NCBI RefSeq assembly: GCF_037902255.1
Contig: NZ_CP147990.1
Span: 4,380,001-4,412,000 of the forward strand
Length of the DNA: 32,000 nucleotides
Reading direction: 5' to 3'
Origin: Candidatus Electrothrix sp. GW3-4
GTDB taxonomy: Bacteria; Desulfobacterota; Desulfobulbia; Desulfobulbales; Desulfobulbaceae
Shown here piece after piece: positions 5,671-24,131 of this stretch. Both the position numbers and the translations under genes were made by a program. How positions within the stretch are numbered: position 1 is the first letter of the stretch; each line of letters begins with the position of its first letter. A model generated the notes under the pieces. The model was not told where the DNA came from and searched no databases. It saw only the letters and a list, made by a program, of their open reading frames with translations.

Positions 5671-5878
5671 GTATGATCGTTTGAAGTTTGTATTCTGGAA
5701 TATATTCATTGTAATATATAAAATAACTACATAATATAATGTATACTCTTATCGTCAGCAATCCGTTGCTAACAGAAATTTCATCCGACAGATTGACTGC
5801 ATTGAACGCAAGACGGTCGTTTGCCCGTCCGCCTTGAGTTCAGCAACGTCTCACAGAACCTTACCTCCCAAGGTGAAT

Positions 5879-8800
5879 ATGATGAATTTTTCTTGCAAAC
5901 TCTTTGTTTCATTTTCCTTAGTTGGACTTATCGCGCTGTCTTTTTCAGGAGGATCATCCTATATCTATACAAAGGACAGACTGAGGCAGGGAGCAGTTGA
6001 CCGACTTGTTGCCATTCGTGATAACCGGGCAAAAAGTATAGAATATTATTTTAAACAAAAAGAATTCGCAGTACGTCTTTTGGCTGAAAATGAGCAAGTG
6101 ATCAGGGCGGCTGAGGATTTTGCAGCCGGTTGGCGAGTTTTGGAGAAAGAACTCGCTCTCAGCGAGAATGCACGAAAAAGTATTACCAGTAGACTTTATG
6201 AGTATTACAGGAGGATAGCCAATCCTGAAAATGCTCATATCTATACCTATCAGGAAAGGAGCCTGCCCTCCTCGTCTGAGGGGAAAATCCTACAGTCAAT
6301 GTACATCGGAGGAGAAGGGAAAAAAACGATTCCTTCGGTGTATGAGAAGATTCTCCAGAGCTCTTACGGTCGAGCGCACAGCATATATCATCCTGTCCTG
6401 CTGGACAGCCTGTCTCGCTTCCATTTTGAGGACCTCTTTATTATCGATGCCGAAACTGGCATTATCATCTACAGCGTAAAAAAAGAAATCGATTATGGAA
6501 CGAGCCTGTTGTTGGGGCCGTATAAAAAATCCAACCTGGCAAGACTTTTTGCGCAGGTACAACGTGCCACGAAGCCTACCGTTTTTTGTGCTGATTTCGA
6601 CCAGTACCCACCCTCCCCGGATCATTCGGCAGCTTTTCTTGCCTATCCAGTCTACAGGGGTGGCAAGCAACTATCTGTTTTTGCTGTTAAACTTTCAATT
6701 GATGGGCTCGACGATCTTCTGAGTGACGGCAGACAGTGGGTTGCAGCCGGTCTTGGCAGAACCGGAGAAAGCTATCTTGTTGGTCCGGATTATTATATGC
6801 GAAATAATTCAAGGTTTTTACTAGAAGATGCAGAGAGCTATTTACGGAGTATGGAAAAAACAGGTCTTGATTCCAGAGCAAAAGAGGGGATAGTACAGGG
6901 AAAAACAACCCTTCTTCATCAGCTGGTGCGTACCACCAGTGTGGCTCAAGCACTTTCTGGAAAAAGTGGGGTTGCCTTTATTAAAGACTATCGAAATATT
7001 GATGTGGTTTCCGCATTTCGTCCGATCAATATACCCATTCCGGGCTGGGTCCTTCTCGTGGAAATGGATACGGAAGAAGTCTTTCATGATTTATATACGT
7101 TTAAAATGCGTATGATTATCATCATGACGATCCTTTTCCTCCTTGTTCTTCTCTTTAGTTATTATATGGCAGATCTTTTTTCCCGCCCGGTAAAAAAAAT
7201 CGTTAAGGGGATAGAACAGTTCGGTGCGACGTCTCTTGCTTACCGAATGACCTTTTCTGGTAAGGATGAATTTGCCGAGATTGCGAAGGCCTGTAACGAG
7301 ACCGCAGAAAAGCTGCAAACGAAAACCGTTGCCCTGGATTATTTTGATATGGTCATCACTTCGATGACCGATATGTTATTGGTTATCAAGATTGACGATT
7401 GTTCGAAACGACCCATTATTCAGGATGCAAATCAGGCGGCCTGCAAGCTGCTTGGATATGAGAAAAACGAAATCATAGGGATGCGTTTCGAAAAAATATT
7501 CCTCAATCCGCAGGGCACGGAATTATTTGAGGCGGAGCAACTGAAAGATTTTTCCCATAGCTGCTCCGTTCGAGGGGTTGAACTCAGTTATCGTACAAAG
7601 GCGGGCAATGAACTTCCTGTTCTTTTCTCTCTCTCAACGCTCACCCCGAAAGAAGGCGGCGTGGCGAAAGGTGTTGTTGCTCTTGCTCAGGAAATCAGTG
7701 CATTAAAAAGAGCCCATCGACGGATGGAAGAGCAAATCCGCGTTCTCTCCCTTGATAGTAAGGTCGGTATGACGCTTACCCAGAAAAACAACCAGCAGGA
7801 AATGCTGCACCAGTGCTGTGTCTTGCTGGTCAGTCATCTGCATCTCTCCTTTGCCCGGGTTTGGCTGCTTGATGACAGGAAAAAGACACTGGTTATGCAG
7901 GCCAGTGCAGGTCTCTATACCAATACGGACGGAGAAGAAGCCATTAAAGGTATTTATGATCATGATCGAATAAGCGATATCGCCTTAACCGGGGATCCTC
8001 ACATAAGAAATACCGTTTCAAAAAAAAGAAATATCTACGATCATGAATGGTTTATAAGAGAATATTCTCTATTTTTCGCGGGATATCCTCTAGTTATTGA
8101 TGATGAAATTGTTGGTGTTATTGCCCTGTTTTCTGAGAATATTTTGTCGGAAACGGCAATTAAATCAATACAGGGGGCGATCAACGAGATTGCCTTGGGG
8201 GTACAGAAAAAAAGAACAGAGTCATCGCTTATTGCAAGTGAGAAGTTGCATAAAAAGGCCCAAAGGATAGCCAAAATAGGTCATTGGGAGATAAACATTG
8301 CTGCTGATGAGCTGACTTGGTCGGACGAACTCTTTCATATGCTTGAGATAAGCAGAAAAGATAACGATGTTTCACCTAAACTTTTTCTTCAAAAGGTCCA
8401 TCCTGATGATAAGAAGTCGCTTATAAAAGAGTATAGAGTATCAGTACAAAAGAGGACGGAATTGGATCTCACCCATAGAATCCTTTTTGAGGATGGGCGG
8501 ATAAAGTACCTGCATGAACGATGTCGAACAGAATACGATGAAAGCGGGACCCCCTTACGTTCCATAGGAACTACACAGGATGTCACCTCCTTGATGGAGG
8601 CGGAACTGGAAAAGGAAGAGGCTGAAAAACGGTTTCGCCAGGCCCAGAAAATGGAAGCTATTGGTACGCTGGCAGGTGGGATAGCGCATGATTTCAATAA
8701 CCTTCTGAATGCAATTATCGGCTACTCTGATATCTTGCTTATGGAGTTACCCGAGAGCAGTGAAACGCATCAATATGCCCAGCAAATCAATAGCGCTGGC

Positions 8801-9775
8801 AACCGCGCGACACGACTTGTCAGTCAGATCCTGACCTTCAGCAGACGAACAGAAGAGGAGCGCCAGCTCATACAGATTCATTTGCTCGTTAAAGAGGTGA
8901 TAAAACTCCTGAGAAGCTCCCTGCCGACCACTATTGATATTCGTCAGAATATTGACGATTGCGGTTGGGTGATGGCCGACAGTACCCAGCTTCATCAGGT
9001 CATAATGAACCTATGTACAAACGCATTTCATGCCATGCGGGAAGGAAAGGGGGTACTTGAAGTGAAACTAGAGCAGGTTGCTCTTGATCAGGATGCCCTT
9101 TTGCAGGCAGGAGCCCTTCCTGAAGGTCGGTATACCTGTTTAACGGTCAGCGATACAGGGCACGGAATAGATAAGATAACGATGGAGCGCATCTTTGAGC
9201 CCTACTTTACCACCAAAAAGAAAGGGGAAGGGACCGGGCTTGGTTTGTCCACAGTGCATGGTATTGTATTAAGTCACGGAGGAGGTCTTTCTGTGCAAAG
9301 CGAGGTCGGCCAAGGGACGACCTTTAAGGTCTTTCTGCCGATTGCCGAAGCCTACGCTGCTCTTCCCCAGGAAAAAGAAGCCGTCAGAATAATTCCGAAA
9401 CCGAAACTTTCTGGACGAATTTTATTTGTTGATGATGTGGAATTCAATGTGCAACTCGGTACCAATGTCTGTCAACGGATAGGCTGCCGGGTAAAAGGGG
9501 TAACCAGCAGCCTGGAAGCGCTTGCCCTGTTTCGCAAGGCTCCGCAAGATTTCGATATTATTATTACTGACCAAACCATGCCAAATCTGACCGGTTTCGA
9601 GCTGGCTATCGAGATGATGAAAATTCGTTCGGATATTCCCATCATCATGTTAACCGGCCATAGCGATATCGTTGACGAACACAAGGCAAAGGAGGTGGGG
9701 ATACGAGCCTTTCTCGCCAAGCCCTTGGATATGAAGATCCTTGCGGAAACAATCGATGAGATCATGTCCTCATAG
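5879..9775 (+). CDS. Hybrid sensor histidine kinase/response regulator: TM, double-Cache-type periplasmic sensor, TM, HAMP, PAS, GAF, PAS, HisKA, HATPase_c, REC
   Basis: I place the start at ATG 5879, behind AAGGTG (5870-5875); the track's TTG at 5834 is less likely. The extracytoplasmic region contains GRTGESYLVGPDYYMRNNSR. The second TM is MRMIIIMTILFLLVLLFSYY, at about 7106. The H-box GIAHDFNNLLNAIIGY has its His codon at 8687-8689. The G-boxes are DTGHGI and GTGLGLS. The C-terminal REC has DIIITDQTMP (Asp codon 9569-9571) and a KP motif. Confidence 0.95.
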   Translation: MMNFSCKLFVSFSLVGLIALSFSGGSSYIYTKDRLRQGAVDRLVAIRDNRAKSIEYYFKQKEFAVRLLAENEQVIRAAEDFAAGWRVLEKELALSENARKSITSRLYEYYRRIANPENAHIYTYQERSLPSSSEGKILQSMYIGGEGKKTIPSVYEKILQSSYGRAHSIYHPVLLDSLSRFHFEDLFIIDAETGIIIYSVKKEIDYGTSLLLGPYKKSNLARLFAQVQRATKPTVFCADFDQYPPSPDHSAAFLAYPVYRGGKQLSVFAVKLSIDGLDDLLSDGRQWVAAGLGRTGESYLVGPDYYMRNNSRFLLEDAESYLRSMEKTGLDSRAKEGIVQGKTTLLHQLVRTTSVAQALSGKSGVAFIKDYRNIDVVSAFRPINIPIPGWVLLVEMDTEEVFHDLYTFKMRMIIIMTILFLLVLLFSYYMADLFSRPVKKIVKGIEQFGATSLAYRMTFSGKDEFAEIAKACNETAEKLQTKTVALDYFDMVITSMTDMLLVIKIDDCSKRPIIQDANQAACKLLGYEKNEIIGMRFEKIFLNPQGTELFEAEQLKDFSHSCSVRGVELSYRTKAGNELPVLFSLSTLTPKEGGVAKGVVALAQEISALKRAHRRMEEQIRVLSLDSKVGMTLTQKNNQQEMLHQCCVLLVSHLHLSFARVWLLDDRKKTLVMQASAGLYTNTDGEEAIKGIYDHDRISDIALTGDPHIRNTVSKKRNIYDHEWFIREYSLFFAGYPLVIDDEIVGVIALFSENILSETAIKSIQGAINEIALGVQKKRTESSLIASEKLHKKAQRIAKIGHWEINIAADELTWSDELFHMLEISRKDNDVSPKLFLQKVHPDDKKSLIKEYRVSVQKRTELDLTHRILFEDGRIKYLHERCRTEYDESGTPLRSIGTTQDVTSLMEAELEKEEAEKRFRQAQKMEAIGTLAGGIAHDFNNLLNAIIGYSDILLMELPESSETHQYAQQINSAGNRATRLVSQILTFSRRTEEERQLIQIHLLVKEVIKLLRSSLPTTIDIRQNIDDCGWVMADSTQLHQVIMNLCTNAFHAMREGKGVLEVKLEQVALDQDALLQAGALPEGRYTCLTVSDTGHGIDKITMERIFEPYFTTKKKGEGTGLGLSTVHGIVLSHGGGLSVQSEVGQGTTFKVFLPIAEAYAALPQEKEAVRIIPKPKLSGRILFVDDVEFNVQLGTNVCQRIGCRVKGVTSSLEALALFRKAPQDFDIIITDQTMPNLTGFELAIEMMKIRSDIPIIMLTGHSDIVDEHKAKEVGIRAFLAKPLDMKILAETIDEIMSS

Positions 9776-9890
9776 GGACAGCGGTTGGAAAAAGGCTTGT
9801 AAGGAAGGCCCGAACACGTTGATCAGGCAAAGGGTCGTCCCACTGGCCTATCAGTCAGTCCGCAGACATTGCAGAAAGGAGAAAGATACT

Positions 9891-10595
9891 ATGGATATTA
9901 TAAAAGCAGCAGATCGTCATTTTACCGATTTTGGATGGTTAAAGACCTTTTGGCTTTTCTCGTTCTCTGATTATTATGATCCCAATAACCTGCAACTTGG
10001 CGCGTTGCGGGTTTTTAATGATGATATCGTCGAGCCGGGAACAGGGTTTGGAACCCATCCCCATGAGGAGATGGAGATTATCACCATAGTCTTGCAGGGC
10101 GAGATAACCCATGCAGACAGTATGGGGAATAAGAGCGTCATCAAGGCCGGAGATGTGCAGCGGATGTCCGCAGGGACTGGTCTGACCCACTCAGAGCATA
10201 ATCTTGCCGAGGAAGGAGTCTTTTTTTATCAGATTTGGATCTTGCCGGATACAGCGGGGCTGGAACCAAGCTATGCCCAGAAGAATTATGATGCCAGTCT
10301 GTGGCAGAATACCCTGCTGCCGGTGGCCTCTGGCCAGGGGTTTCCCGGAGTCGTTTCTTTTCACACCGATGCCACCATCTATCGTTGTCAGCTAGGTCCA
10401 GGAAAGGAGGTAGGGCATAACTGCGCTGAAGGGCGTTGCGTGTTTCTCTATCTGACCGAGGGTACACTCTCGGTAAATGGGCAGATAATTTCGGCAAGAG
10501 ATCAAATTCGGGGCAAAAATCCTGAGCAGCTTGCTATCAAGGGAGACGAGCTGGCTGATTTTATCCTGATTGACGTCCCAGCTCTTACTGACTAA
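9891..10595 (+). CDS. yhhW: Pirin-family protein, YhhW-like (quercetin 2,3-dioxygenase type)
   Basis: The start is ATG 9891, behind AAAGGAGAAAG. HFTDFGWLKTFWLFSFSDYYDPNN, GFGTHPHEEMEIITIVLQGEITHADSMGN and SAGTGLTHSEHN closely parallel E. coli YhhW as I recall its sequence. The track's upstream extension to 9741 overlaps the kinase and is unlikely. Confidence 0.88.
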   Translation: MDIIKAADRHFTDFGWLKTFWLFSFSDYYDPNNLQLGALRVFNDDIVEPGTGFGTHPHEEMEIITIVLQGEITHADSMGNKSVIKAGDVQRMSAGTGLTHSEHNLAEEGVFFYQIWILPDTAGLEPSYAQKNYDASLWQNTLLPVASGQGFPGVVSFHTDATIYRCQLGPGKEVGHNCAEGRCVFLYLTEGTLSVNGQIISARDQIRGKNPEQLAIKGDELADFILIDVPALTD

Positions 10596-10652
10596 CGTGA
10601 ACAAGTGAAACAGGAGAAGATAACGTTCAATAATACGAAAAACAGGGGAGAC

Positions 10653-13418
10653 ATGAAAGAAATACCTGAAGAGCAATGGCACCTGTTAGAAAAAGATAAC
10701 GTTCTTTCCCGCCTGGAGAGCAATGAAGAGGAAGGGCTTGATCAGCAGGAGGTGGAACAGCGGCTGCAACGCTTTGGACCCAACGTCCTGACCACCAAGG
10801 CGGGCAAGAGCAATCTCATCCGCTTTCTCCTCCAGTTTCATCAACCCCTGATATATATCCTGATTGTTTCCGGGGTGATTACGGCCCTGCTCCAGGAATG
10901 GGTGGATTCCGGGGTGATCTTCGGAGTGGTGCTGGCTAACGGTATTATCGGCTTTATCCAGGAGTCCAAGGCTGAGAGCAGTCTTGCGGCCCTTGCTCAG
11001 ACTATGGTTGCCGAGGCCACAGTGCTGCGTTCCGGGGCGAAGCAGCGGATTCCTTCAACTGAGCTGGTGCCAGGAGACGTGGTTCTGCTTACGGCAGGAG
11101 ATCGGGTGCCAGCGGATATGCGCCTTCTTCATTGTCGAGACCTCCAAGTGGCAGAATCGGCCCTGACCGGCGAATCCGTCCCGGTGACCAAGAATGTTTC
11201 CCCGCTGCCTGAAGAGACCGATCTGGCAGAACGGAACAACATGGCCTATGCCTCGACTATGGTGACCTATGGACAGGCCAGCGGGATTGTTACGGCAACC
11301 GGGGATCAGACAGAGGTGGGCCGAATTTCCCAGCTGATCTCCACGGCCCAGGACCTGGCCACGCCTCTCACCCGCAAGATTGCCCAGTTCAGTCAGGTGC
11401 TTCTGTACGCCATCCTTGGACTGGCCGCCCTGACCGTGGCGGTGGGCCTGTTGCGCGGTCAGCCGCTGTTCGACCTGTTCATGGCTGCGGTTGCCCTGGC
11501 AGTGGGGGCTATTCCAGAAGGTCTACCAGCAGCAGTCACCATCACCCTGGCTATCGGCGTTTCCCGGATGGCGAAGCGACAGGCCATTATCCGTAAACTG
11601 CCTGCGGTGGAAACTTTGGGCAGCACCACGGTGATCTGTTCGGATAAGACCGGCACCCTGACCGAGAACCAGATGACCGTACAGGCCATCCTTGCCGGAC
11701 AGGAGGAGTACGAGGTCAGTGGGGCCGGTTATGCCCCGTATGGGGAGATTTCCCGCCAGTCTGATCAACAAGATAATCCACAAGCAGGGGCTGATCAAGG
11801 AGCACCACCCCCTTCTGAGCAGGATGCCCCGGTCCTTCATCGCTGTCTCCGGGTAGCAGCCCTATGCAATGACGGTGTCCTCCAGGAAAATGAGGAGGGT
11901 TGGCAGATTCAGGGCGATCCCACAGAGGGAGCTCTGCTCACCGTTGCTGGCAAAGGGGGATATGCGATGCAGGAACTTCGGGACCAGTATCCCCGCCTGG
12001 ACAGCATTCCCTTTGAATCCCAGCACCAGTTCATGGCCACCCTGCATGAGGAACAGGCGGAAGAGGCAGGAGATTCCACCGATGCTACGGAGGGCATAAT
12101 CTGCATCAAAGGAGCAGTGGAGCAGGTGCTGGCTAAATGTGAGCATGCGCTGACTGTTGAGGGAACGATCACTCCCCTGGATCAGGAGAAGATCCATGAA
12201 GAGGTTACGCGACTTGCGGCACGGGGGTTGCGGGTGCTGGCCTTTGCAGAGAAGAAAATAGAGGGTAGAACAGGCATTGCGTCCGGGGATGTGCAGGAAG
12301 GTTTCACCTTCCTCGGGTTGATGGGGATGATTGATCCACCCAGGGCCGAAGCTGTGGCAGCGGTCAAGACCTGTCGTCAGGCAGGGATTCGTATCAAGAT
12401 GATTACGGGTGATCATCCGGCCACCGCAGCAGCCATTGCCGGTCAGATAGGGTTGGCAGACGAGCACAAGGAAGGTGAACAGCCCAAGGTGCTGACAGGC
12501 TCTGAGCTGGAAAAGTTTGACGATCAGGAACTGATTGACGCTGCTGCGGACACGGATGTCTTTGCCCGAGCCACTCCGGAACAGAAGATTCGCCTGGTGC
12601 GTGCCCTCCAGGCCAGGGGCAACGTGGTAGCCATGACCGGTGACGGGGTCAACGATGCCCCGGCCCTGAAGCAGGCCGATATCGGGGTGGCCATGGGCAT
12701 CACCGGTACGGATGTGTCCAAGGAGGCAGCGGACATGGTGCTGACCGATGATAATTTCAGCTCCATTGAGGCGGCGGTGGAAGAGGGGCGGGGTGTGTTT
12801 GACAACCTGACCAAGTTCATTGTCTGGACCCTGCCCACCAATCTCGGGGAAGGACTGGTCATCATGGCAGCCATCTTTTTCGGCCTCACCCTGCCCATCT
12901 TGCCGGTGCAGATCCTCTGGATCAACATGACCACAGCCGGTTTCCTGGGCCTGATGCTGGCCTTTGAGCCCAAGGAGCCTGGCATTATGCTGCGTAAGCC
13001 TCGTGATCCAGACACCCCGATCCTGACCAACGAGCTGATCATCAGGATACTGCTGGTGGGCACGTTGTTATTGATCGGTGCCTTCGGTCTTTTTCAGTGG
13101 GAGCTGGCTGCGGGTGCTTCCCTTGATGCGGCCCGGACCGTTGCGGTCAATGTCTTTATCGTGATGGAGCTGTTTTATCTCTTCAACTGCCGTTCATTGA
13201 CCAAGAGCGTCTTCCAGCTCGGCTTTTTCTCCAATATCTGGGTCTTTGTCGGGGTTTCGGCTATGCTGCTTATCCAGATGGTGTACACCTATGTCCCGGT
13301 GATGCAGCAGCTTTTTCACAGCACGTCCATCGGTATCGGCTCCTGGGCCCGGATTATGCTGGCCGGGGTGATCGGTTTTTTGATTGTTGAGGCGGAGAAG
13401 AAGTTGCGGGCTGGGTGA
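10653..13418 (+). CDS. Type-II P-type cation-transporting ATPase (Ca2+/Mg2+-type; ion not determinable)
   Basis: The motifs are TGES (ALTGESVPV), IPEGLP in TM4, the phosphorylation site [17 protein letters not shown] and [22 protein letters not shown] 10-TM architecture is implied. ATG 10653, behind AGGGGAG, is preferred over the track's GTG 10605. Confidence 0.95.
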
Positions 13419-13573
13419 ACGCAGGAGCAAGAGAGGCGCGGGATGAATGATTTTTTGCATGAACTTGGAATGTATTCCTGGAATAAGCAATTATTTTTGG
13501 AGTACACTCCAGTTTTGTTTACTTATGCTCTGCAATTCTGCTTCGATTGCGGGGACAGACTGTTTCGGGAGAG

Positions 13574-13699
13574 CCGACGGGCATGGTGCGCAGTTGTTTT
13601 CGGCGACTGAACAGGGTATCTCCATTGAGCGCGGATGTGTTGGCCGGGGCCATTGTTTTTTTGATTGTGGAGGGGGAGAAGAAGTTGCGGGCTGGGTGA
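13574..13699 (+). pseudogene. Decayed ghost copy of the last ~40 codons of the P-type ATPase gene
   Basis: The 26-nt string ggagaagaagttgcgggctgggtgaa, which includes the stop codon, occurs at 13394-13419 and again at 13675-13700 (offset 281 bp). Upstream of the second copy, QLFSATEQGISIE then (after a frameshift) ADVLAGAIVFLIVEGEKKLRAG* parallels [37 protein letters not shown] of the intact gene. Confidence 0.7.
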
Positions 13700-13959
13700 A
13701 AAGTAATGTGAGGTAATCGATCATAATAAACCGGAGGCGTACTTGGCATGCCTAAAAAGGGAAGAATGGAAATAACTTGCGTATCAACCTGTAACGGGTT
13801 AAAGAAAGATTGAATTTCGTTCAGAAATTTCTGCAAGTTGGCGGAGGCGAATTAATCTATTCGTAAAAAAACAGAAAGGGTTTGTGTAATCTTCTGCTAT
13901 GTGAAAAAGATGTATCGTGCGGTGAACTGATCTAACAACGAAAAACAAAGCGGGTTTGT

Positions 13960-15465
13960 ATGAGGATACTTCTTGATACGAATATCTTGATCCCGTTGGA
14001 GGATTCTTCCAAGGCTCTGCATGATAGTTTCTCAGAGTTTGTTCTTTTGGCACATTCAAATGAACATTGTCTCCTTGTACATCCAAGTTCTCGTGACGAC
14101 ATTCAGCGTGATCGCAATATAACTCGCCGAGAAATCAGTCTATCACGATTTAAAAAATATTCTCTGCTGTCTCCTTCACCAGCTCCACCCACAGAAGTTG
14201 AATTAGCATCATACCACCTCAGGCAGGACAACGAGAATGATCGAGTAGATAACGAAATTCTCTTCTCGATATTCCGTAATGCTGCAAATATATTAGTCAC
14301 TGAGGATAGAAAACTCCATCGGAAAGCGAGCAGGATGGGGTTATCAAACAGAGTTCATTATCTTCAGCAGGCGGTTGCTTTTTTAAGGCGTCTACACGCC
14401 GTTATTCCAATTACACTGCCGAATATTGAGGAAGTTCCTCTTTATCAGCTTGACCTTAATGATTCTTTTTTTGATTCGTTAAGGGAAGATTATGATGGTT
14501 TTAATGAATGGTACGAAAAGAAAGCAAGAGACGGGCGTCGATCTTGGATACACAGAAACCCTCTTGGGAAAATGGGTGCCGTCTGTATATTTCACATCGA
14601 AAATGATCCTATATTGACAGATGACCATCGGAGTATCCCGGGAAAAGTATTGAAATTGTGTACCTTCAAAGTCGGGGGATCTGTACGAGGACGGCGAGTT
14701 GGAGAATTATTTTTAAAAGCAGCTTTCCGGTATGCATTTGAGAATAAAATAGAACATATCTATCTACATACCCGTGCTGAAAAACAGGAGTTTCTTATAG
14801 ATTTTTGCCGAGAATTTGGATTCCGCCATTTTGGCGAGTATAAAAATGATGAGGTATATGTAAAAAAGCATCCTCATGAGCCACCCGTAGATTCCAATAC
14901 AGACCCTGTTGAATATCATAGAAAATTCTTCCCGCATTTTATGGCAGGCAAGGTGATCACCAAATATATTATACCGATCCAACCAAAATATCATAAAATT
15001 CTCTTCCCAGACGGCCAAGTTCAATCACTTCTTCCATTTGGAAATGCGGGAACGGGTCAAGTGGTTGGTAATGCGATACGGCAGGCTTATCTTTGCCATG
15101 CGAGGATTGGCGGAATAACACCTGGAGATATCGTACTGTTCTATAGGTCAAAGGATCAAAAATCTATTACTTCTGTTGGAGTTATAGAGAAGGTTGGTGA
15201 CTATAGTAGCTTTGAAGACATCGTTCAGATCGTATCGAAAAGAACGGTCTACTCTCATAAAGAAATAGGTGAGATGGCGAAGAAGAAAACGAAAGTTATA
15301 CTTTTTCGTCTTGTTCAGCATCTCTCAAATCCTATTTCGATTAAATGGCTTGAGAAAAATGGTCTAGTAAAAGGCCCCATTCAGACTATAAGAAAAATTA
15401 AAGATGAATCATTTGTCGAGATTATTAAAAAAGGAGGGATCACGAATTGCCTTCTTGCCGATTAA
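13960..15465 (+). CDS. Three-domain fusion protein: N-terminal PIN-like nuclease, central GNAT acetyltransferase, C-terminal PUA-like (ASCH/EVE-type) domain
   Basis: A 501-aa ORF in an AT-rich island. The PIN motifs are MRILLDTNILIPLED (D6, E14/D15), VDNEILF (D97) and ILVTEDRKL (D116). GNAT motif A is VRGRRVGELFLKAAFRYA (14683-14712 and following), then HIYLHT and FGFRHFG. The PUA-like motifs are IIPIQPKYHKILF and GDIVLFYRSKDQKSITSVGVIEKV. Domains were called by motif only. Confidence 0.75.
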   Translation: MRILLDTNILIPLEDSSKALHDSFSEFVLLAHSNEHCLLVHPSSRDDIQRDRNITRREISLSRFKKYSLLSPSPAPPTEVELASYHLRQDNENDRVDNEILFSIFRNAANILVTEDRKLHRKASRMGLSNRVHYLQQAVAFLRRLHAVIPITLPNIEEVPLYQLDLNDSFFDSLREDYDGFNEWYEKKARDGRRSWIHRNPLGKMGAVCIFHIENDPILTDDHRSIPGKVLKLCTFKVGGSVRGRRVGELFLKAAFRYAFENKIEHIYLHTRAEKQEFLIDFCREFGFRHFGEYKNDEVYVKKHPHEPPVDSNTDPVEYHRKFFPHFMAGKVITKYIIPIQPKYHKILFPDGQVQSLLPFGNAGTGQVVGNAIRQAYLCHARIGGITPGDIVLFYRSKDQKSITSVGVIEKVGDYSSFEDIVQIVSKRTVYSHKEIGEMAKKKTKVILFRLVQHLSNPISIKWLEKNGLVKGPIQTIRKIKDESFVEIIKKGGITNCLLAD

Positions 15466-16408
15466 ACCACAATTCGCTAGCAAAATAGTAAAAGGTGAAA
15501 AACTTTTTGAGTACCGTAAACGTATATTTAATGAAGATACATCTTGTATTATTATTTATTCGTCATCTCCTGAAAAGAAGATTGTAGGTGTCGCAAAAAT
15601 CAATAAGATATTGGAAGGAGCACCGACCAATATCTGGGAAAAAACAAAAAAACACTCTGGAATAACCAGAAAATTTTTCCGAGAATATTTCCTTGGAGTC
15701 AAAAAGGCCTCTGCGATTGAATTGACAGAAATATATCCCCTGAAGGTTCCCTTGAGTCCTTTTCAAATTCAAGAAGGATTTACTATTCCTCAATCGTTTT
15801 GTTATGTTGACTTGTCTTTTCTGGAGAAAGTTATCTGTTCTGGAAACTGTGTCTTTCCCTCTCTTAACAGCAAGAGTGTGGTCTTAATCGGTGGGATACA
15901 TGGTGTTGGGAAAACGACCATTTGTAAAGAGATCTCAGATCAAGAAAATATTGTCCACTTAGTAGCAAGTGAGCTCATTAAGGGTAAGTTGAACTGTGTC
16001 GCTGGTACAAGTGCTTCTTCTGAAAAAAAAGTTCGTAACATAAAGGACAATCAAGAACTCTTGATATCTGCATTAGATGAAATAACTCTACCTGGTGGTA
16101 GATTTATCCTAGATGGTCATTTTGTTCTTTTTAATAAAAATGCAGAAATTCAGAAGGTACCTCTTACTACCTTTGAAAAAATAGAACCAGATAAGCTTGT
16201 CGTAATAACAGGAGAACCCAAGATCCTTCAGAAAAGATTACACAAACGAGATGGCAAAGTATATCCGGTTGAAAAATTGAAGGAAATGCAGGAGCAGGAA
16301 GTTGAATATGCCTCTATTGTTGCCGAGAGACTTGGTATTCCTTTAAAGTTAATAGGATTCGACGACAAAGTGGCAATTGCCGACTTTATAAACAATAAGT
16401 CAGCTTGA
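15404..16408 (+). CDS. ASCH-domain / P-loop nucleoside(nucleotide)-kinase-like fusion protein
   Basis: The N-terminal ASCH pattern is FLPIKPQFASKIVKGEKLFEYRKR, then CIIIYSSSPEKKIVGVAKINKI. The C-terminal Walker A is GGIHGVGKTT (15890-15916), followed by ILDGHF and a lid-like LQKRLHKRD as in adenylate/AAA_18-type kinases. The start is uncertain. ATG 15404 has no SD and overlaps gene A by 62 nt. A strong AAAAAGGAGGG (15427-15438) lies 8 nt upstream of an in-frame ATT at 15446. Confidence 0.75.
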   Translation: MNHLSRLLKKEGSRIAFLPIKPQFASKIVKGEKLFEYRKRIFNEDTSCIIIYSSSPEKKIVGVAKINKILEGAPTNIWEKTKKHSGITRKFFREYFLGVKKASAIELTEIYPLKVPLSPFQIQEGFTIPQSFCYVDLSFLEKVICSGNCVFPSLNSKSVVLIGGIHGVGKTTICKEISDQENIVHLVASELIKGKLNCVAGTSASSEKKVRNIKDNQELLISALDEITLPGGRFILDGHFVLFNKNAEIQKVPLTTFEKIEPDKLVVITGEPKILQKRLHKRDGKVYPVEKLKEMQEQEVEYASIVAERLGIPLKLIGFDDKVAIADFINNKSA

Positions 16409-18309: not shown

Positions 18310-18337
18310 CCCAGACTGATCGTTTGAAGGGGGGAGG

Positions 18338-18361
18338 GGAAGCAGGGGCGACCCTGCCTCC
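18338..18361. terminator. GC-rich hairpin between convergent genes (possible bidirectional terminator)
   Basis: ggaagcaggg-gcga-ccctgcctcc forms a 10-bp stem with one mismatch. It lies between the stop at 18309 (+) and the stop at 18383 (-). There are no flanking T-runs. Confidence 0.45.
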
Positions 18362-18382
18362 TTGAGGCGGGAATAACTTAGG

Positions 18383-19096
18383 CTACTGGATCTTGACCTC
18401 TTTTACCACCGGTTTCGGCATATCCTTTCTCGGCATGGTCACGGTCAGCACCCCCTGTTGAAAGCTCGCCTTGATCCCCTCCTGGTCAGCGTCTTCCGGT
18501 AAGGAGAGCACACGCTGAAAAGAACCGTAAAAGCGTTCCTGCCGGTAATAGTCCTTGTCCTCTTCCTTTTTCTCCTGCTTCTTCTCACCGCTGATGGTCA
18601 TGACATTATTGGCCACTTCGATCTTGATATCGTCTTTTTCCGCGCCAGGGACCTCGACGGTGATGGTGTATTCCTTGTCATTTGCAGCGAGATCTGTAAC
18701 CGGTCGGAACATCCCGCCGGAAGTATGCTGAAACGGCCTGTCCATATCAAACGCGGAAAATCCGAAATCGCGGAAGGTCTGGTCAAAGAGCCGATTAATA
18801 TCGCGATGAAAATCCCGCAAGGGACCAGCAAGTTCATCCTGGTCTTCTTTACCGTCTTTCCGTTGAATAGGCACCTTGTTGCCGCTTTTCTCTTCCTCTT
18901 TGCTGAACCAGTTCCAGGGAGACCAATTTTTCTCCTCTGCCTTCTGGTCCGGCTTGGTGTTTTTCTGTTCTTTGGTGATCACGTCTGGAGAATTTGCCGA
19001 CTCGGCGGCATAACTCAGCGGCGTTATTGATGAGATGAGTGTCAGTGCTGTTATTCCTGTCAATACCCATGCCTTTGTTTGCATTCGCCCATTCAT
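18383..19096 (-). CDS. Hsp20/alpha-crystallin family protein with an N-terminal signal peptide (predicted periplasmic small heat-shock protein)
   Basis: The RBS is GGAGG, 7 nt upstream of the ATG. The N-terminus MNGRMQTKAWVLTGITALTLISSITPLSYAAE has a basic n-region, a hydrophobic core and an A-x-A-like site. The C-terminal alpha-crystallin domain is FRPVTDLAANDKEYTITVEVPGAEKDDIKIEV...ISGEK...ERFYGSFQRVLSLPEDAD...GVLTVTMPRK. Confidence 0.85.
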   Translation of the reverse strand: MNGRMQTKAWVLTGITALTLISSITPLSYAAESANSPDVITKEQKNTKPDQKAEEKNWSPWNWFSKEEEKSGNKVPIQRKDGKEDQDELAGPLRDFHRDINRLFDQTFRDFGFSAFDMDRPFQHTSGGMFRPVTDLAANDKEYTITVEVPGAEKDDIKIEVANNVMTISGEKKQEKKEEDKDYYRQERFYGSFQRVLSLPEDADQEGIKASFQQGVLTVTMPRKDMPKPVVKEVKIQ

Positions 19097-19139
19097 TGCT
19101 GTACCTCCAGAATAAAAAAAGAGTTATAAAATAAAAGAG

Positions 19140-19169
19140 GTAAGGGGTTTCGTAAAATCCCTTGCCAAG
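19140..19169 (-). promoter_or_regulatory. Sigma-32 (RpoH)-like heat-shock promoter candidate for the 18383..19096 sHSP gene
   Basis: The minus strand reads CTTGGCA-N15-CCCCTTAC, compared with the E. coli consensus CTTGAAA-N13-17-CCCCATNT. It lies about 45 nt upstream of the ATG. The call rests on consensus similarity only. Confidence 0.35.
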
Positions 19170-19216
19170 GCCTCCTGTGCGTGAGCACGGTGTCTATGTT
19201 TAAATGGTTTTGCTCT

Positions 19217-19339
19217 CTATCGGAGATCAGGTTGATCGCCTTGCTGACAGCTCGCCTGCATGCCGTCCTGGTCCGCACCTTCCGGCAGAGAGACTATCTG
19301 CTGCAACGAACCGTCAAAACCTTCCTGCCCGATACGCTG
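19217..19339 (-). pseudogene. Ghost of the 3' end of an hsp20 paralog
   Basis: The minus-strand translation QRIGQEGFDGSLQQIVSLPEGADQDGMQASCQQGDQPDLR* parallels YRQERFYGSFQRVLSLPEDADQEGIKASFQQGVLTVTM of the 18383..19096 gene. Nucleotide identity to 18455-18545 is about 70% by eye. It has no N-terminal part or start, and it begins immediately after the stop of the 19341..19778 gene. Confidence 0.65.
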
Positions 19340-19340
19340 T

Positions 19341-19778
19341 TCAGTTGACCTTCACCTCAATCTGCTTGGGTTTGGCCTGCTCCATCTTGGTCAGGGTCAG
19401 GCTGAGTACCCCGTTTTTACAGGCCGCCTCGACCTTATCCACATCCACATCCTGGGGCAGGGTGAAGGTTCTGATAAAGGTACCGTATCTGCACTCGTTT
19501 CTGTGGACCTTTTTGTCCTTATCATCACCCTTCTTTTCCCCTTTGATGGTCAGAATACGGTTGTCGATACCAACCTGGACATCATCTTTTTCCACTCCAG
19601 GGAGTTCAACCTTTAAAACAAATTCGTTGTCTGTTTCAAGGATATCGACGACAGGTGCCCAGTCGCCAGTTTCAACAGATTCGTTGTCTTCAGCGGTTGA
19701 TTTTCTTCTTGCGGGCATTGTGTAGGTGTTCAACAATGCCTCCATCTCACGAAAAGGATCCCAAATACTGACGTTCAT
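19341..19778 (-). CDS. Hsp20/alpha-crystallin family small heat-shock protein (cytoplasmic type)
   Basis: The RBS is AAGGAGGG upstream of ATG 19778. The domain reads WAPVVDILETDNEFVLKVELPGVEKDDVQVGIDNRILTIKGEKK...RYGTFIRTFTLPQDVDVDKVEAACKNGVLSLTL. There is no signal peptide. Confidence 0.92.
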   Translation of the reverse strand: MNVSIWDPFREMEALLNTYTMPARRKSTAEDNESVETGDWAPVVDILETDNEFVLKVELPGVEKDDVQVGIDNRILTIKGEKKGDDKDKKVHRNECRYGTFIRTFTLPQDVDVDKVEAACKNGVLSLTLTKMEQAKPKQIEVKVN

Positions 19779-20264
19779 AATACCCTCCTTGGTCGTTTGT
19801 TGAAGAATAATATACTGTCTCTGCTTGAGTCGCTTATCCTTATTGAGTATTTTTTTGTTGTTTATGTTTCCTTTACTCTAAAGGATAAAGCATCTTTTCC
19901 TTCTTTCTTGTCGATAACCTCTCATGTTAAAAAATGCATGTATCACTCCTTACGATATTTCTCTTTGTTAGGCATGATAAACTATATTTTCCTGTTTGGT
20001 TGAATAAATAATTATGATGGGAGATGTCGTCAAGGGCATAAAAGTAAAAAAAGGAATAATGCCATCACAAAATATATCATGGGAGAGGAAAGAAGGTCGT
20101 ATGGGGCGGTGGTTCGAACGGGGGTGCAGAATGGAGGGGCCGTCGCCGGATTGCTGCTCTTATGCTTGTGAAGGAAGGGAGAGAAGGGCAGCGGATGGGC
20201 TATACCCCATGCCGGTACCATACCGGAATGACGCAGCTTGGTTAAAGTAGCAGGCTCTGTTCGT

Positions 20265-20287
20265 CCCCCTGCCGTCCCGGCAGGGGG
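20265..20287. terminator. Strong 10-bp GC hairpin downstream of the minus-strand OMP gene
   Basis: ccccctgccg-tcc-cggcaggggg is a perfect stem, 35 nt beyond the stop at 20322. No U-run follows on either strand. Confidence 0.45.
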
Positions 20288-20321
20288 AAAGATGTGTCGA
20301 ACAATCATCTTGGCCAAGAGA

Positions 20322-21014
20322 TCAAAACAAGAGGGCAAAGTTGAGAAAGAAGCTTTCGGTAGATCCTTCAAGATCTTCTTCAGAATAGGTGATATATCGG
20401 TCGTATGTATAGTAATAGTTTAGACTTGCCGTACCTTTTGTTTCGAGAACCCGAAAACCAATGGATGAAGAAAAGGTCATATATGGATTGACCTTGAAAT
20501 TTATACCTGTCACGATCCCTAATCCATATTGGACAAAATCGTACTCTACATCGTAGGGATAACCATATTCATCGAAAACCGTATCGCCTTCGCCGCTGTG
20601 GGCACTGAGATGGAGCAATGGGCCCAGCCACCAACGGAAAGAGGGGGCTTGGACTAAGGAAAAGGCAAAGATGTTTTCCATAGTGATTCCGACTAAATCG
20701 AGGTCGTTGTTGAACTCGTCCTCAAGTTCCTTGCCTTCAAGCCCGATATTCAGGCGGTAGTTGAAGAATGATGGAACGGTAGGGTTGGCAGGAGCGGTAT
20801 CCAGGACAAAGCCTACGGCTGCGGTATTCATGTCGATATCAAACTCCTCGCCGGAACGATCCCATTCCAGGGTTCCTGAGCCAGTGGATATATCAAGATA
20901 GGGGCCCATGGAGAGGGCCTCGGCGCGAGGAATGAAGGTTCCCCAAAAAGCTGTGAGCATCATTGCGATGAAGAATATTTTTGGTAGGGATAATGCTTTA
21001 CTCAATCGGGCCAT
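20322..21014 (-). CDS. Small outer-membrane beta-barrel protein
   Basis: The signal peptide is MARLSKALSLPKIFFIAMMLTAFWGTFIPRAEA|L. Aromatic and polar residues alternate in strand-like segments. The C-terminus FFLNFALLF ends in Phe. Confidence 0.7.
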   Translation of the reverse strand: MARLSKALSLPKIFFIAMMLTAFWGTFIPRAEALSMGPYLDISTGSGTLEWDRSGEEFDIDMNTAAVGFVLDTAPANPTVPSFFNYRLNIGLEGKELEDEFNNDLDLVGITMENIFAFSLVQAPSFRWWLGPLLHLSAHSGEGDTVFDEYGYPYDVEYDFVQYGLGIVTGINFKVNPYMTFSSSIGFRVLETKGTASLNYYYTYDRYITYSEEDLEGSTESFFLNFALLF

Positions 21015-21088
21015 TTTTCTCTCCTTGTTTCTTTATCGTTTATCGGTAAAAAAGAGGGGCTGTTGCCGCTCAACAGGGCTGGCTAAAT

Positions 21089-21319
21089 TCAATACAACTT
21101 CTTCGCGTCTTCCAGGTAGGTCTGAATAGTGTTGATATCATCTGCGGTTAGTTTAAATTCATAATCGCATCCGGTGCATTTTATGTGTTTGTCCGGGGTC
21201 AGCACCTCTGAAGGCATTTTGGTTACGGTTGAACAGTTGCCGCAGGTTATGACAAGTGCTGCGTTGAAATCATCATCTATTTCAAAGTCGATTTTGGGTG
21301 TTGCAGGTTGGTTTTCCAT
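21089..21319 (-). CDS. Small zinc-ribbon protein (CxxC...CxxC)
   Basis: The 76-aa product contains CGNC and CTGC 23 residues apart (ITCGNCSTVTKMP...HIKCTGCDYEF). The gene sits 44 nt downstream of the REC-TIR gene on the same strand. Confidence 0.6.
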   Translation of the reverse strand: MENQPATPKIDFEIDDDFNAALVITCGNCSTVTKMPSEVLTPDKHIKCTGCDYEFKLTADDINTIQTYLEDAKKLY

Positions 21320-21363
21320 TGAATATGCCTTTGGTTGAGATTGGGTCGTTTTTAAACGAGAGG

Positions 21364-22218
21364 TTAGAGGGATAAGATTTTTTTTATGGAAAAGCTGAGC
21401 GAGCGAATTTGATCAGCTCTCTTGTCTGCTGATGTAAGATCTACACAGTGCATGGAGCTGATTTGGCGAGGCACTTCTGTTGGTTGTATGTTATACAGAA
21501 CAGGGATAATGAAGAAGCTGTTGCCGTCGCGTTTTTTTCTGTTAAAGGCCTGGATAATTTCTTGCTTCATATAATCAGATCGCAGGGTATCCTGAGTGAG
21601 GATCAAAAGAAATATTTTGCAGGTATTGATTGCTTCCAGTAAGATAGGACGCCATATATCATCTGCTAACAACTCTGCGTTTTCACAGCTTGATCCTATA
21701 TTATTTTTCATAAACTCATCTCTTAAGAATGAAGCGAGTTTTTCGTTCGCAGATGAATGACTTATGAATATATCCCTCTCTTCTACTTTAATCTTTGCCA
21801 GTGGGGCGTTATTGTATTCTGAGATATTTCGGGCAATATTGACATGTCGTTTTACGGAAGAGAGAAATTTTTCTTCGGAAAAAGGTTTGATCAGATAGCT
21901 GTCCGCGCCTTTAGAGTAAAATTCTGCGAACTCATTTGGTGATAAGCGACCTGACATGATAATAACCTGTGTTCGCTTTCTCTCTCTTGTTAACAACTCC
22001 AGCAGCGCAACACTCTCTTCCTTTGTCCCGTCTTGTAAGTAGATGTCGAGTAAAACAAGATCGACTTCCCGTCCTTGCGAGGAAAAGGTGTCCAGGACGT
22101 TCTTTGCTTCTTCGGCAGAGGTAAAAAAATGAACGTCGAATGTCTTTGAATCAAAAAGCTTTTCAATAAGTTTATGGACGAATTTGCTATCGTCAACTAC
22201 AACGACTAAATATTTCAT
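21364..22218 (-). CDS. Response-regulator receiver (REC) domain fused to a TIR domain
   Basis: The REC has the acidic pair VVVVDDS (D9/D10), the phospho-acceptor LVLLDIY (D58, codon 22047-22045), IIMSG (S89) and LIKPF (K111). The TIR has DIFISHSSANEKLASFLRDEF, then KIFLLILTQDTLRSDYMKQEI. E220 (codon 21561-21559) aligns with the catalytic Glu of the W-x-x-x-E motif in RPS4 (WCVRE) and SARM1 (WVHKE). Confidence 0.8.
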   Translation of the reverse strand: MKYLVVVVDDSKFVHKLIEKLFDSKTFDVHFFTSAEEAKNVLDTFSSQGREVDLVLLDIYLQDGTKEESVALLELLTRERKRTQVIIMSGRLSPNEFAEFYSKGADSYLIKPFSEEKFLSSVKRHVNIARNISEYNNAPLAKIKVEERDIFISHSSANEKLASFLRDEFMKNNIGSSCENAELLADDIWRPILLEAINTCKIFLLILTQDTLRSDYMKQEIIQAFNRKKRDGNSFFIIPVLYNIQPTEVPRQISSMHCVDLTSADKRADQIRSLSFSIKKILSL

Positions 22219-22510
22219 CGACGCCTCACAAGTGTGGATTCTCCCCGTCTGTATACCTTTCGGATGCTTTTTGATATGCTCTTAAAAAGTTGACCCTTCT
22301 TACGCGTATATTGGTTTTTAAAGACTAAAATGCTGGCCTTGAAAAGTAAACAGAAAATCTTGTTTATGATGGGAAAAAGGGTGAATATTGAGGAGGGAGG
22401 GGAAAAATCTCGCTGAAAAGGTGCATGCTGGCTTTGATTCGGAATTGCTGAAATACAAAACCGGGCCATGCGCTCCCCTGGCACCGACCCGGCAAGAGAG
22501 AAGATATTTA

Positions 22511-23065
22511 TCAGTTACAGGTTAAATCACATGGTACACGTCGCTTAACGACTGCTCCGGTATATGTGTCTACTGTTTCATCATGGCAACCTTTTCCGGG
22601 AACAGAAACTCGTCTCAGAAGTTCGCCCGGTGCCACCCTGTTCTGGCATAATAATTTTCCAGCGTTATCATTGCAGGCTGGTCCGGTATCAGCATAGGCA
22701 AAGTGGAAAATTTCATTAAACGCGATTGGCTGAGAAAAGGTTTTTAGACCTACCCAACGAAACATGGCAGGAGATTTAGTTCTTTCAATCTTAAGCAAAA
22801 CGTCTCCTGATGCACAAACGATAGCTCCTACATGCATATCACTGCTGTTTTTAATAGAAAAAAAATTTCCTTTGCTACACTCATAATTTCTTTCCCATAA
22901 TTCGTTTTGCTCAATCGCCATTTGGGACGTACCAAACGGAGCACCAATTTTTTTTGAATGATAAAATTCCCAAAAAGTAGGAATTGAGCATGCAAGTGCA
23001 GTAAAAATAAGAGGATATATCAAGGATCGTAGGTGCCATTTTGTGGAAGTTTGTTCCGTTGCCAT
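22511..23065 (-). CDS. Hypothetical membrane-anchored or secreted Cys-containing protein
   Basis: I place the start at ATG 23065, behind AAGGAGGAG; the track's longer start at 23122 is less likely. The N-terminal hydrophobic helix is LRSLIYPLIFTALACSIPTFW. I recognise no family. Confidence 0.6.
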   Translation of the reverse strand: MATEQTSTKWHLRSLIYPLIFTALACSIPTFWEFYHSKKIGAPFGTSQMAIEQNELWERNYECSKGNFFSIKNSSDMHVGAIVCASGDVLLKIERTKSPAMFRWVGLKTFSQPIAFNEIFHFAYADTGPACNDNAGKLLCQNRVAPGELLRRVSVPGKGCHDETVDTYTGAVVKRRVPCDLTCN

Positions 23066-24131
23066 ACTGTTCTCCTCCTTACGTAAGTTTTCTTGTAGGT
23101 CAATCGCTCGGTGTAACGACAAGGTATGTCACTTTGCCTTTTATGATAGCAAAGAGTCATCTTTGAAATTATTGTCTTTTTTTATAAGCTATTGTAAGAG
23201 AAGGTAACTGGTGTTACGCTCTGTATTCGGGGCCATGAACAACGGGTCCCTGAGAAAATTCAATCCTTGTTCCACCTTTTGCTGATCTTTATACGTCTCT
23301 TGGGTAACAGGCGGCCAGCATTCTTTTAAAACCCAACGCCCATTTTTAAAAAAGAGAGGCCTATTTTGAAAAGGTGAGTGCCCGCTTTGTACCGTAGCAT
23401 GATAGGTTGCTTTGTTGAACAGGCTGATGTCTATTGTAGACTTGCCTAGAATATATAGAACATGCTCCTGTAAACGTAGTCAATCGAAAAAACATTATAT
23501 CAGGGTGTTAAGAATGATTCAGATTCCCAGGATTCCTGAATTTCATTGCGAGGCAAGCAAAGAAATTCGTTCTTTGGCCCCAAAAAAACGTTTAGAGGAA
23601 AGTGCTCGGCGAGGTCGATTGTTTCCCGCTTTTTTTGGGGACATGCCTGGCAATGGGCATTAACGCCGCATCGAAACAGCGGAAAAGAGCGTGCCATGGG
23701 GTACGACGAGTAAGAAAATGACGAAAATACAATGGGAAACGGCTTGTCGGCAAGGGGTGGGAATTCTATAAAAAGCGCTCCCCCCCGGCCTGCGGCCGGG
23801 ACCAAACTTCCAAATAACAACAATATAAATGTGTTGTTACTTAGAAGGATAACCAGCAGGCAGTGATCCTCTATTATTGCTCTCGTAAATTTGACAGCAG
23901 TAATTTTGAGGCCTATTATTGGAGGGGTATGGCCTTTGTTTCGCTGCAAGAGAATGGATTCGCCGTATCTGATATGAAGTAAGGGTATGGAGAGCGCTAT
24001 GAGAGATCTGCCCAGAGGGCCTGCGACCTGGGGGGGAGGATGCCTGCAAGCAGTATCGTAAGATGAAGAGATGAGGTCACTGGGCCAGACGATTTTTTCA
24101 CAGCCCTTTGCATTGAATATGTTTTCTTTGT

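Follow-up and report, generated by a model that had tools for sequence, protein, structure and literature searches.

Operons built around a protein that joins a GNAT domain to an EVE domain, with or without a PIN domain, were predicted in the literature between 2013 and 2020 and are catalogued in PADLOC as PDC-M11. In their passages on these (PIN)-GNAT-EVE operons, Bell, Wolf & Koonin 2020 report that a second PUA-like protein of the ASCH type is almost always encoded and an AAA_17 ATPase often, place the operons near type I restriction-modification (R-M) systems and CRISPR and the PIN-less GNAT-EVE forms in prophages, and state that at that time no such protein had been characterised. The relevant entries of Matelska 2017 list the same PIN-GNAT-PUA architecture as PIN_15 and PIN_17, together with the ASCH (plus ATPase) operon, for which both works cite Iyer 2013. 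Here we describe a two-gene cassette in a 32,000-nucleotide stretch of the genome of Candidatus Electrothrix sp. GW3-4 (contig NZ_CP147990.1, positions 4,380,001 to 4,412,000; hereafter the window), which consists of gene A (13960..15465, + strand), a 501-residue PIN - GNAT-like - EVE/PUA-like fusion and predicted effector or toxin, and gene B (15404..16408, + strand), a 334-residue fusion of an ASCH domain with a P-loop domain resembling nucleoside monophosphate (NMP) kinases, predicted to be a neutraliser or antitoxin carrying an accessory kinase. The cassette is almost certainly an intact member of the (PIN)-GNAT-EVE / ASCH / AAA_17 conflict system PDC-M11, and it is of the less common form in which the ASCH domain and its kinase-like partner are joined by fusion.

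The PADLOC model PDC-M11A (PDLC04422) matched protein A from residue 1 to 497, at profile positions 1 to 497 of 501, with an E value of 1.2e-142, and PDC-M11B (PDLC04424) matched the ASCH part of protein B (residues 10-143 only; E = 5.5e-44). The window genes are also adjacent, co-oriented and overlapping. The difference from PDC-M11 lies in the second half of B, since PDC-M11B models about 130-165 residues of ASCH only; the kinase half (about 190 residues) falls outside it, has no PDC-M11 model and gave a weak match to PADLOC VakA (1.7e-4), yet a kinase is present in 72 of 75 of the loci surveyed below. The protein and operon also agree with the accounts in Bell 2020 and Matelska 2017 in the three-domain protein, the obligatory ASCH gene, the optional AAA_17 protein and the type I R-M association, and the last three of these features were reproduced in our locus survey. 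In those accounts, as far as they deal with the operon, ASCH and AAA_17 are separate genes and the ATPase is a non-essential regulator, whereas in the window the two form one polypeptide and no R-M partner is present. The earlier note, made from the sequence alone, had taken the cassette for an undescribed module matching no named system. Because both proteins match PDC-M11A/B and the operon is already in print, and with a phage pair named GevT/GevA described below, that claim is withdrawn: the pair was found to be already catalogued, and this is not a new system.

Both genes are real and intact. Their open reading frames (ORFs) overlap by 62 nt on the + strand, as expected from the tight coupling first proposed. 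The longest ORF of B starts at an ATG at 15404, within the 3' end of A; a strong GGAGG lies at 15433-15437, with only an in-frame ATT (15446) 8 nt after it. The ATG at 15404 was retained as the start of B and the ATT at 15446 was noted as an alternative.

Profile searches, together with Foldseek comparisons of AlphaFold2 (AF2) models, bore out the GNAT, ASCH, P-loop kinase and PUA-like calls of the earlier note, and its PIN call at the level of the family; conserved catalytic residues were found in all five domains of A and B. Protein A was modelled on 35 homologs (predicted local distance difference test score, pLDDT, 87), across which the conservation of its residues was also assessed. Residues 1-148 (13960..14403, + strand) constitute the PIN-like domain, with acidic positions at D6, E14/D47, D94/D97 and E115-D116, of which D6, D94, D97, E115 and D116 were invariant. 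Pfam PIN_3 matched 9 of the 35 homologs, whereas a Pfam search of the window protein itself gave no PIN match at E<=1, so that the original reading of the acidic positions holds for the family but finds no Pfam counterpart in this protein. When the region was compared with PDB profiles, the sole matches were the PIN proteins 3ix7 and 1o4w, at weak E values of 0.3-0.5 and in alignments covering D97 and the T-E-D116 motif of A; no PIN structure was among the 50 Foldseek matches listed for the model. The PIN assignment of A is therefore supported only at family level. The pages of Matelska 2017 on PIN_15/PIN_17 place the PIN domain of this family in the VapC-like group of RNases.

The middle domain of A (14422..14874, + strand; residues ~155-305) matched Pfam Acetyltransf_1 above the gathering cut-off (E = 3.6e-6; 27.7 versus 20.7 bits), and Foldseek retrieved NatD, TacT, AtaT and other GNATs, with a probability of 1.0 to many GNATs. 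The GNAT call is thus secure, but the motif A that the earlier note had considered intact is not: at 14671-14727 it reads R243-G244-R245-R246-V247-G248, non-canonical with respect to Q/R-x-x-G-x-G/A, and in the family the first and last positions are conserved while the central Gly is replaced by R/K. The C-terminal barrel (14947..15450, + strand; residues ~330-497) was aligned by Foldseek with ZmASCH (PDB 5y6b) at a TM-score on the target (TMt) of 0.74-0.81, in agreement with the PUA-like third domain originally proposed. Pfam EVE fell below its cut-off in the window protein (E = 3e-3; 17.9 versus 23 bits) and was present in 17 of the 35 homologs, and Bell 2020, where it treats such proteins, places the barrel in EVE. 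As judged from its model, the domain is an EVE/PUA-like barrel for which the EVE and the ASCH subfamily are alike possible.

The AF2 model of protein B had a pLDDT of 88.7; fused ASCH-kinase homologs of B number 192, and residue conservation was assessed across 38 such fused homologs. The ASCH domain (15443..15841, + strand; residues 14-146) is homologous to ZmASCH (sequence E = 3.6e-14, 28% identity; TMt 0.85, root mean square deviation 1.6), and Pfam ASCH scored 17.6 bits, below its cut-off of 21.2. The two proteins share the GxKxxExR octapeptide, which in B reads G31-E-K33-L-F-E36-Y-R38 (15494-15517) and in which K33, E36 and R38 were invariant, and the conserved residues Y52, K58 and S131 of B correspond to Y47, K53 and S128 of ZmASCH. 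ZmASCH differs in lacking a kinase and in that its deposition places it within a 'helix-turn-helix domain-containing protein', and the ASCH protein YqfB differs in carrying Thr for Glu in the octapeptide and in acting on the free nucleoside. The P-loop domain of B (15866..16393, + strand; residues ~155-330) contains a Walker A motif, GGIHGVGKTT (15890-15919), and an LDGH motif (16100-16126). It matched Pfam AAA_17 (1.8e-16) and AAA_18 (1.3e-10), superimposed on archaeal adenylate kinases (TMt 0.72-0.76) and likewise resembles thymidylate kinases; the NCBIfam adenylate and UMP-CMP kinase models matched at 3e-6 to 1e-5, all far below their cut-offs. Its invariant residues are G164, H166, G169, K170, D237, G238, H239 and R282, the last forming part of a conserved R282-D283 pair, and among the invariant columns no counterparts of the arginines that bind the NMP phosphate were evident. 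The architecture first read for B, an ASCH domain joined to a Walker A kinase-type P-loop, was therefore confirmed.

The earlier note had further paired motifs of the PUA-like modules of A and B and had concluded that both proteins read the same ligand. A profile-profile alignment with hhalign did align the same stretches, but with an E value of 0.31 and a probability of 0.2%. The pairing is therefore not significant and the common-ligand idea is unsupported; on these profiles the resemblance of the two barrels is confined to their fold.

The A family is large and patchily distributed. More than 2158 clusters at 90% identity were recovered at E<=1e-5 among the candidates scored, with a uniform length of about 490-500 aa, and a peptide-pattern scan found relatives of A in at least 335 species of the GTDB representative set. 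They occur in Thermodesulfobacteriota, Nitrospirota, many Burkholderiales, Verrucomicrobiota, a cyanobacterium and Saccharibacteria, as well as in Sulfurovum, Holophagaceae, haloarchaea and a methanogen virus. To define gene linkage, 80 genomic loci were fetched, of which 77 had some sequence downstream of A and 75 enough for a kinase to be called. An ASCH gene directly followed A in all 77 loci, and when the search was started from the B side, three of three homologs of fused B stood directly after a full-length A that is 41% identical (in Acidithiobacillus, Prosthecochloris and an ENA contig); whether homologs of A and B co-occur, a check put forward by the earlier note, was thus answered positively. 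A kinase followed A and ASCH in 72 of the 75 loci, as a separate gene in 66 (about 175 aa, usually overlapping the ASCH gene by 4 nt) and fused to ASCH in 6, and was missing in the other 3.

When A was placed on a neighbour-joining tree, fused forms appeared in at least three places apart from one another, one holding the window and L001-L003, one the pair L007/L008 and one L069. The kinase has been lost in L005, L006 and L015, which make up the sister group to the clade of the window. Within the second fusion group, an Azonexus metagenome-assembled genome (MAG) (L007) and a MAG of the cyanobacterium Stenomitos (L008) carry near-identical A proteins and identical gene lengths in different phyla, which suggests a very recent transfer or MAG contamination. 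The invariant core of the family is therefore (PIN)-GNAT-EVE plus ASCH, to which the kinase is often added as an accessory, with a tendency to become fused to ASCH. The recurrent fusion, together with the near-constant presence of the kinase in PIN-containing chromosomal loci, argues that ASCH and kinase act together as one unit rather than that the kinase is a dispensable regulator.

Loci on plasmids and in phages are more variable. The ASCH partner was found in all nine of them and the kinase in three, and gene order varies, with an HTH-ASCH (helix-turn-helix) gene upstream of A in alphaproteobacteria. A co-occurrence of the kinase with the PIN domain was considered and rejected: a PIN-less copy on a Vibrio plasmid has the kinase, and PIN-containing copies in phage psiM100, in Halalkaliarchaeum and in L005, L006 and L015 are without it. 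On a Mesorhizobium huakuii plasmid (L083, 3061-6189) there are two ASCH genes, one upstream and co-oriented with A and one downstream on the opposite strand, along with an AAA-type kinase and a DUF4365 gene; the family as a whole shows a highly plastic gene order. In the Lactobacillus prophage Lj965 (L088, 2801-4896) four phage tRNA genes (Ser, Glu, Tyr and Phe) stand directly upstream of the GNAT-EVE/ASCH pair, an anecdotal hint of a connection with tRNA. In the Methanothermobacter phage psiM100 (L089, 3501-5346), an archaeal virus, the PIN-GNAT-EVE gene, ORFD, largely overlaps the annotated 'inserted fragment IFa'; the ASCH gene comes next as ORF5, and its annotation likens it to the ORF5 of phage psiM2.

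Clustering of the proteins that neighbour the relatives gave 434 clusters, 396 of them singletons, and the recurrent ones were defence or mobility genes: over the 80 loci, type I hsdS/hsdR (18), hsdM (8), HNH_5 (11), Septu PtuB (3), DUF4365 (4) and integrases (4), with type IIG/ISP R-M genes recurring too. R-M, Septu or DUF4365 genes lay no more than four genes away in 26 of the 80 loci, and the system is also found on plasmids, in phages and prophages, and beside integrases and transposases. Several copies are embedded in type I hsd operons (L003, L005, L068, L090 and L092). In L003, L005 and L068 the order is hsdR-hsdS-[A-ASCH(-kinase)]-...-hsdM and the start of A overlaps the stop of hsdS, and in Acidithiobacillus and Prosthecochloris it is hsdM-hsdS-[A-B]-...-hsdR. 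The anticodon nuclease gene prrC is arranged in this way within the EcoprrI locus. In the part of PMC1484252 that concerns its regulation, PrrC is an RNase which the R-M enzyme keeps latent; activation comes when a phage inhibits that enzyme, through an anti-restriction peptide of the phage together with nucleotides. The likeness to PrrC of the type Ic system EcoprrI thus lies in the placement of the relatives' pair between hsdS and hsdR or hsdM; PrrC, for its part, is R-M-linked and joins an RNase to an NTP-sensing domain. A and B are unrelated to PrrC in sequence and fold, and the window copy is not R-M-linked.

Two further comparisons bear on the function of the pair. In the lambdoid Escherichia phage PhiR47_2 (GenBank PV340567.1, from INPHARED), a GNAT-EVE/ASCH pair between cI and kil is annotated as 'GevT toxin' and 'GevA antitoxin'. 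GevT is 30% identical to residues 164-499 of A (E = 1e-35) and GevA 41% identical to the ASCH part of B (residues 17-135; E = 2e-29); gene order is as in the window and the ORFs overlap, but GevT has no PIN domain, GevA has no kinase and the pair is phage-borne. The GNAT-RHH (ribbon-helix-helix) type II toxin-antitoxin (TA) systems TacAT, AtaRT and ItaRT share with A a GNAT-fold effector, and TacT and AtaT are among the structural neighbours of A. They differ in that their toxins are small GNAT proteins of a single domain, whereas A has three domains, 501 residues and a non-canonical motif A, and in that the partner of A is an ASCH-kinase protein, for which Pfam and NCBIfam searches gave no RHH match, unlike the antitoxins of those systems.

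Work on ASCH proteins supplies possible activities for B. ZmASCH binds nucleic acid and cleaves single-stranded RNA (ssRNA) in vitro, with Y47, K53 and S128 implicated (the study of PDB 5GUQ/5GUS). In a 2026 preprint, 19 ASCH proteins, ZmASCH among them, are reported to remove N4-acetylcytidine at position 34 (ac4C34) from Escherichia coli tRNA in vitro, a reaction that requires the Lys/Glu dyad of the GKER octapeptide.

Taken together, these results make us lean towards a TA-like module of the abortive-infection type that would have RNA, most probably tRNA, as its target, a model favoured because of the toxin and antitoxin annotation of GevT/GevA, the RNA activities of ZmASCH and the invariant catalytic residues. 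A role in TA or defence, with A as the effector and B as its neutraliser, is probable. In such a module the EVE/PUA-like barrel would dock A on nucleic acid, possibly modified; the GNAT-like domain would acylate an RNA-linked amine, the PIN domain would cut RNA, or both; the ASCH domain of B, through its Lys/Glu 'GKER' motif, would remove the mark written by A or compete for the same RNA; and the fused domain of adenylate kinase fold would couple the activity of B to the ATP or nucleotide state. Infection would then disturb either B or the pool of nucleotides, or else, in relatives, the type I R-M enzyme to which the system is linked, whereupon A would prevail and translation would halt. The proposed neutralisation of A by B has a parallel in DarT/DarG, where an enzyme undoes the mark that the toxin has made. 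The conflict or TA-like reading of the earlier note is upheld in its general form, and refuted in its novelty. Its writer/eraser idea gained from the finding that a homolog of B removes ac4C from tRNA and that the dyad is invariant in the B family; the RNA target and the acetyltransferase stay at the level of suggestion, and acetyl writer/eraser chemistry as such is a tentative proposal that we hold to be rather doubtful. More speculative still is a long-shot version in which the cassette would be an acyl writer/eraser immune switch on tRNA or a nucleotide: A would mark RNA, cut it or do both, ASCH would erase the mark, the kinase would sense or phosphorylate a nucleotide released or altered in infection, and the R-M-embedded copies would be PrrC-like guards that fire when a phage disables the type I enzyme.

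Several points weigh against the TA-like RNA model, whose weakest links are the acetyltransferase activity, the choice of RNA over DNA and the role of the kinase. The replacement of the central Gly of motif A by R/K speaks against acetyl transfer by A, and the entries of Matelska 2017 on the family call motif A degenerate and the domain probably no active acetyltransferase; GevT, moreover, appears to be four residues short in the motif A loop. The absence of the kinase from six of the nine plasmid and phage loci and from L005, L006 and L015 marks it as accessory and makes its role guesswork. The toxin and antitoxin roles of GevT and GevA are GenBank annotation only, and literature searches found no paper behind these names; PDC-M11 is a 'candidate' phage-defence system only, and the same searches found it mentioned solely in a genome survey and found no experiment on any PIN-containing member. 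The RNase activity reported for ZmASCH is in vitro only, and in the 2026 preprint the protein did not act on the free nucleoside and caused no significant change of ac4C in vivo. The 32-kb window contains no R-M, hsd, integrase or tRNA gene. Finally, Bell 2020, in its discussion of ASCH, favours DNA binding on account of R-M linkage and of ASCH fusions to HsdS and to XRE-HTH.

This last view underlies the rival that survives best, one that follows the modified-DNA reading of Iyer 2013 and Bell 2020: the system would be a restriction accessory in which EVE and ASCH read modified bases, the GNAT-like domain adds an acetyl group to a DNA base or does no more than bind, and the PIN domain or the linked type I enzyme cuts. 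The frequent position of the system in or beside type I R-M operons, the HTH-ASCH partners on alphaproteobacterial plasmids, the ASCH-HsdS and ASCH-XRE-HTH fusions in which ASCH is taken to bind modified DNA, and the standing of EVE domains as known readers of 5-methylcytosine and 5-hydroxymethylcytosine in DNA (both from the sections of Bell 2020 on these domains) would all suit it. The only characterised homolog of the B ASCH domain, ZmASCH, however, acts on ssRNA and tRNA in vitro, the VapC-like grouping of the PIN domain in the cited part of Matelska 2017 is one of RNases, embedding in R-M operons fits a PrrC-type tRNA-directed backup, as described in the section of PMC1484252 drawn on above, equally well, and the window copy has no R-M partner. 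On balance we regard a DNA-directed accessory as unlikely.

Quite unlikely, in our judgement, is a plain addiction TA pair that would stabilise an islet or mobile element with no direct part in phage defence. The toxin and antitoxin labels of the phage homologs, the relatives on plasmids, in prophages and beside integrases and transposases, and the retention of an orphan copy in two Electrothrix lineages with no other defence gene in the window are what it would predict. What it would not predict is that PADLOC lists the pair as a phage-defence candidate, that defence genes stand so close to the relatives in 26 of 80 loci, or that the lambdoid phage pair sits between cI and kil, an interval that we take to be the position of rexAB, the classic exclusion locus; addiction and defence are, besides, not mutually exclusive. 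Very improbable is a housekeeping role in turning over an RNA modification and salvaging nucleotides, with a writer of the ac4C type, ASCH as the eraser and a CMP/NMP kinase to recycle the product: the ability of ASCH proteins to deacetylate tRNA ac4C, the resemblance of the kinase half to adenylate, UMP-CMP and thymidylate kinases, and the place of the window genes among housekeeping genes with the same evolutionary rate fit it, but the patchy taxonomy with 396 of 434 neighbour clusters singletons, the anomalous G+C content, the occurrence on plasmids and in phages and R-M operons, the invariant PIN nuclease beside an often missing kinase and the lack of evident NMP-binding arginines in B do not, and conserved synteny with translation genes across phyla was not seen.

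We also compared the Electrothrix copy with its surroundings. The cassette has a G+C content of 38.4% (33% at third codon positions, GC3), against 57.2% (GC3 66%) for the upstream P-type ATPase gene, 53.5% for the downstream DUF1302 gene and 48.2% for the window. The earlier note was right that the cassette is AT-rich next to the ATPase gene, but its values of 27-35% against 68% are extremes of single 60-nt lines. Upstream lie genes for MMPL transporters, a LolA-like protein, a hybrid histidine kinase, pirin and the P-type ATPase, and downstream those for DUF1302, HSP20, a REC-TIR protein and an ABC transporter, among others; the window copy is an orphan islet. A Ca. Electrothrix MAG (L001) has the same order, ATPase-cassette-DUF1302, and nucleotide identity between the two is 80-83% in flanks and cassette alike. 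The ratio of nonsynonymous to synonymous rates (dN/dS) against L001 was 0.145 for each of the two cassette genes and 0.142 for DUF1302, with similar dS. Because the two genomes share the site, the identity equals that of the flanks and dS is similar, the cassette has been inherited vertically since they split, under purifying selection; a recent horizontal insertion in this genome was rejected on the same grounds.

The site itself is a small variable defence islet, because L001 has three genes there that are absent from the window: one for a SLATT_4 protein, a two-transmembrane effector-domain protein, upstream of A (7123-7740), and, downstream of B, an ORF for an unknown protein of 270 aa (10590-11402) and a RhuM-family gene (11664-12599). 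The 'gene ghost' noticed beside the cassette proved to be a stretch of 63 nt (13638..13700, + strand; 89% identity) in which the 3' end of the P-type ATPase gene, stop codon included, occurs a second time in degenerate form. The original copy lies at 13357-13419, so that the two form a direct repeat 281 nt apart with the second copy just upstream of the cassette, and both match the single ATPase 3' end of L001. This duplication could be an integration or excision scar at the islet. A search for att-like flanking repeats found only this upstream duplication, with no matching copy downstream of the cassette. A scan for promoters and terminators was uninformative, an Rfam scan gave only a chance miRNA match (E = 0.41) and a tandem-repeat scan gave nothing meaningful.

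Elsewhere in the window, a gene on the - strand (21364-22218) encodes a protein that joins a response-regulator receiver domain (Response_reg, 5.8e-16) to a TIR domain (TIR_2, 5e-15) and is conserved in L001 (14215-15568); the REC-TIR protein could be a signalling protein or an immune protein of the NADase type. Relative to L001, the window contains two additional segments: one between the LolA-like gene and the ATPase gene (5834-10595), with the genes for the hybrid histidine kinase (1313 aa) and pirin, and one after DUF1302 (18310-21055), with HSP20 and unannotated ORFs. Several ORFs of low G+C content at 19204-24138 gave no Pfam match.

The modest significance of the cassette lies in what it adds to a family that is large (more than 2000 clusters, at least 335 species), that is spread over bacteria, archaea, plasmids and phages, and whose PIN-containing form is apparently uncharacterised. 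The kinase proved to be near-constant in the chromosomal PIN-containing loci sampled and to have been fused to ASCH several times independently, and many copies are inserted in type I R-M operons in a prrC-like layout. The close relationship of the ASCH partner to ZmASCH, an in vitro tRNA ac4C deacetylase, provides a concrete hypothesis for an eraser. If the acyl writer/eraser immune switch outlined above were true, it would mark the first defence system to rest on a reversible acetylation of RNA.

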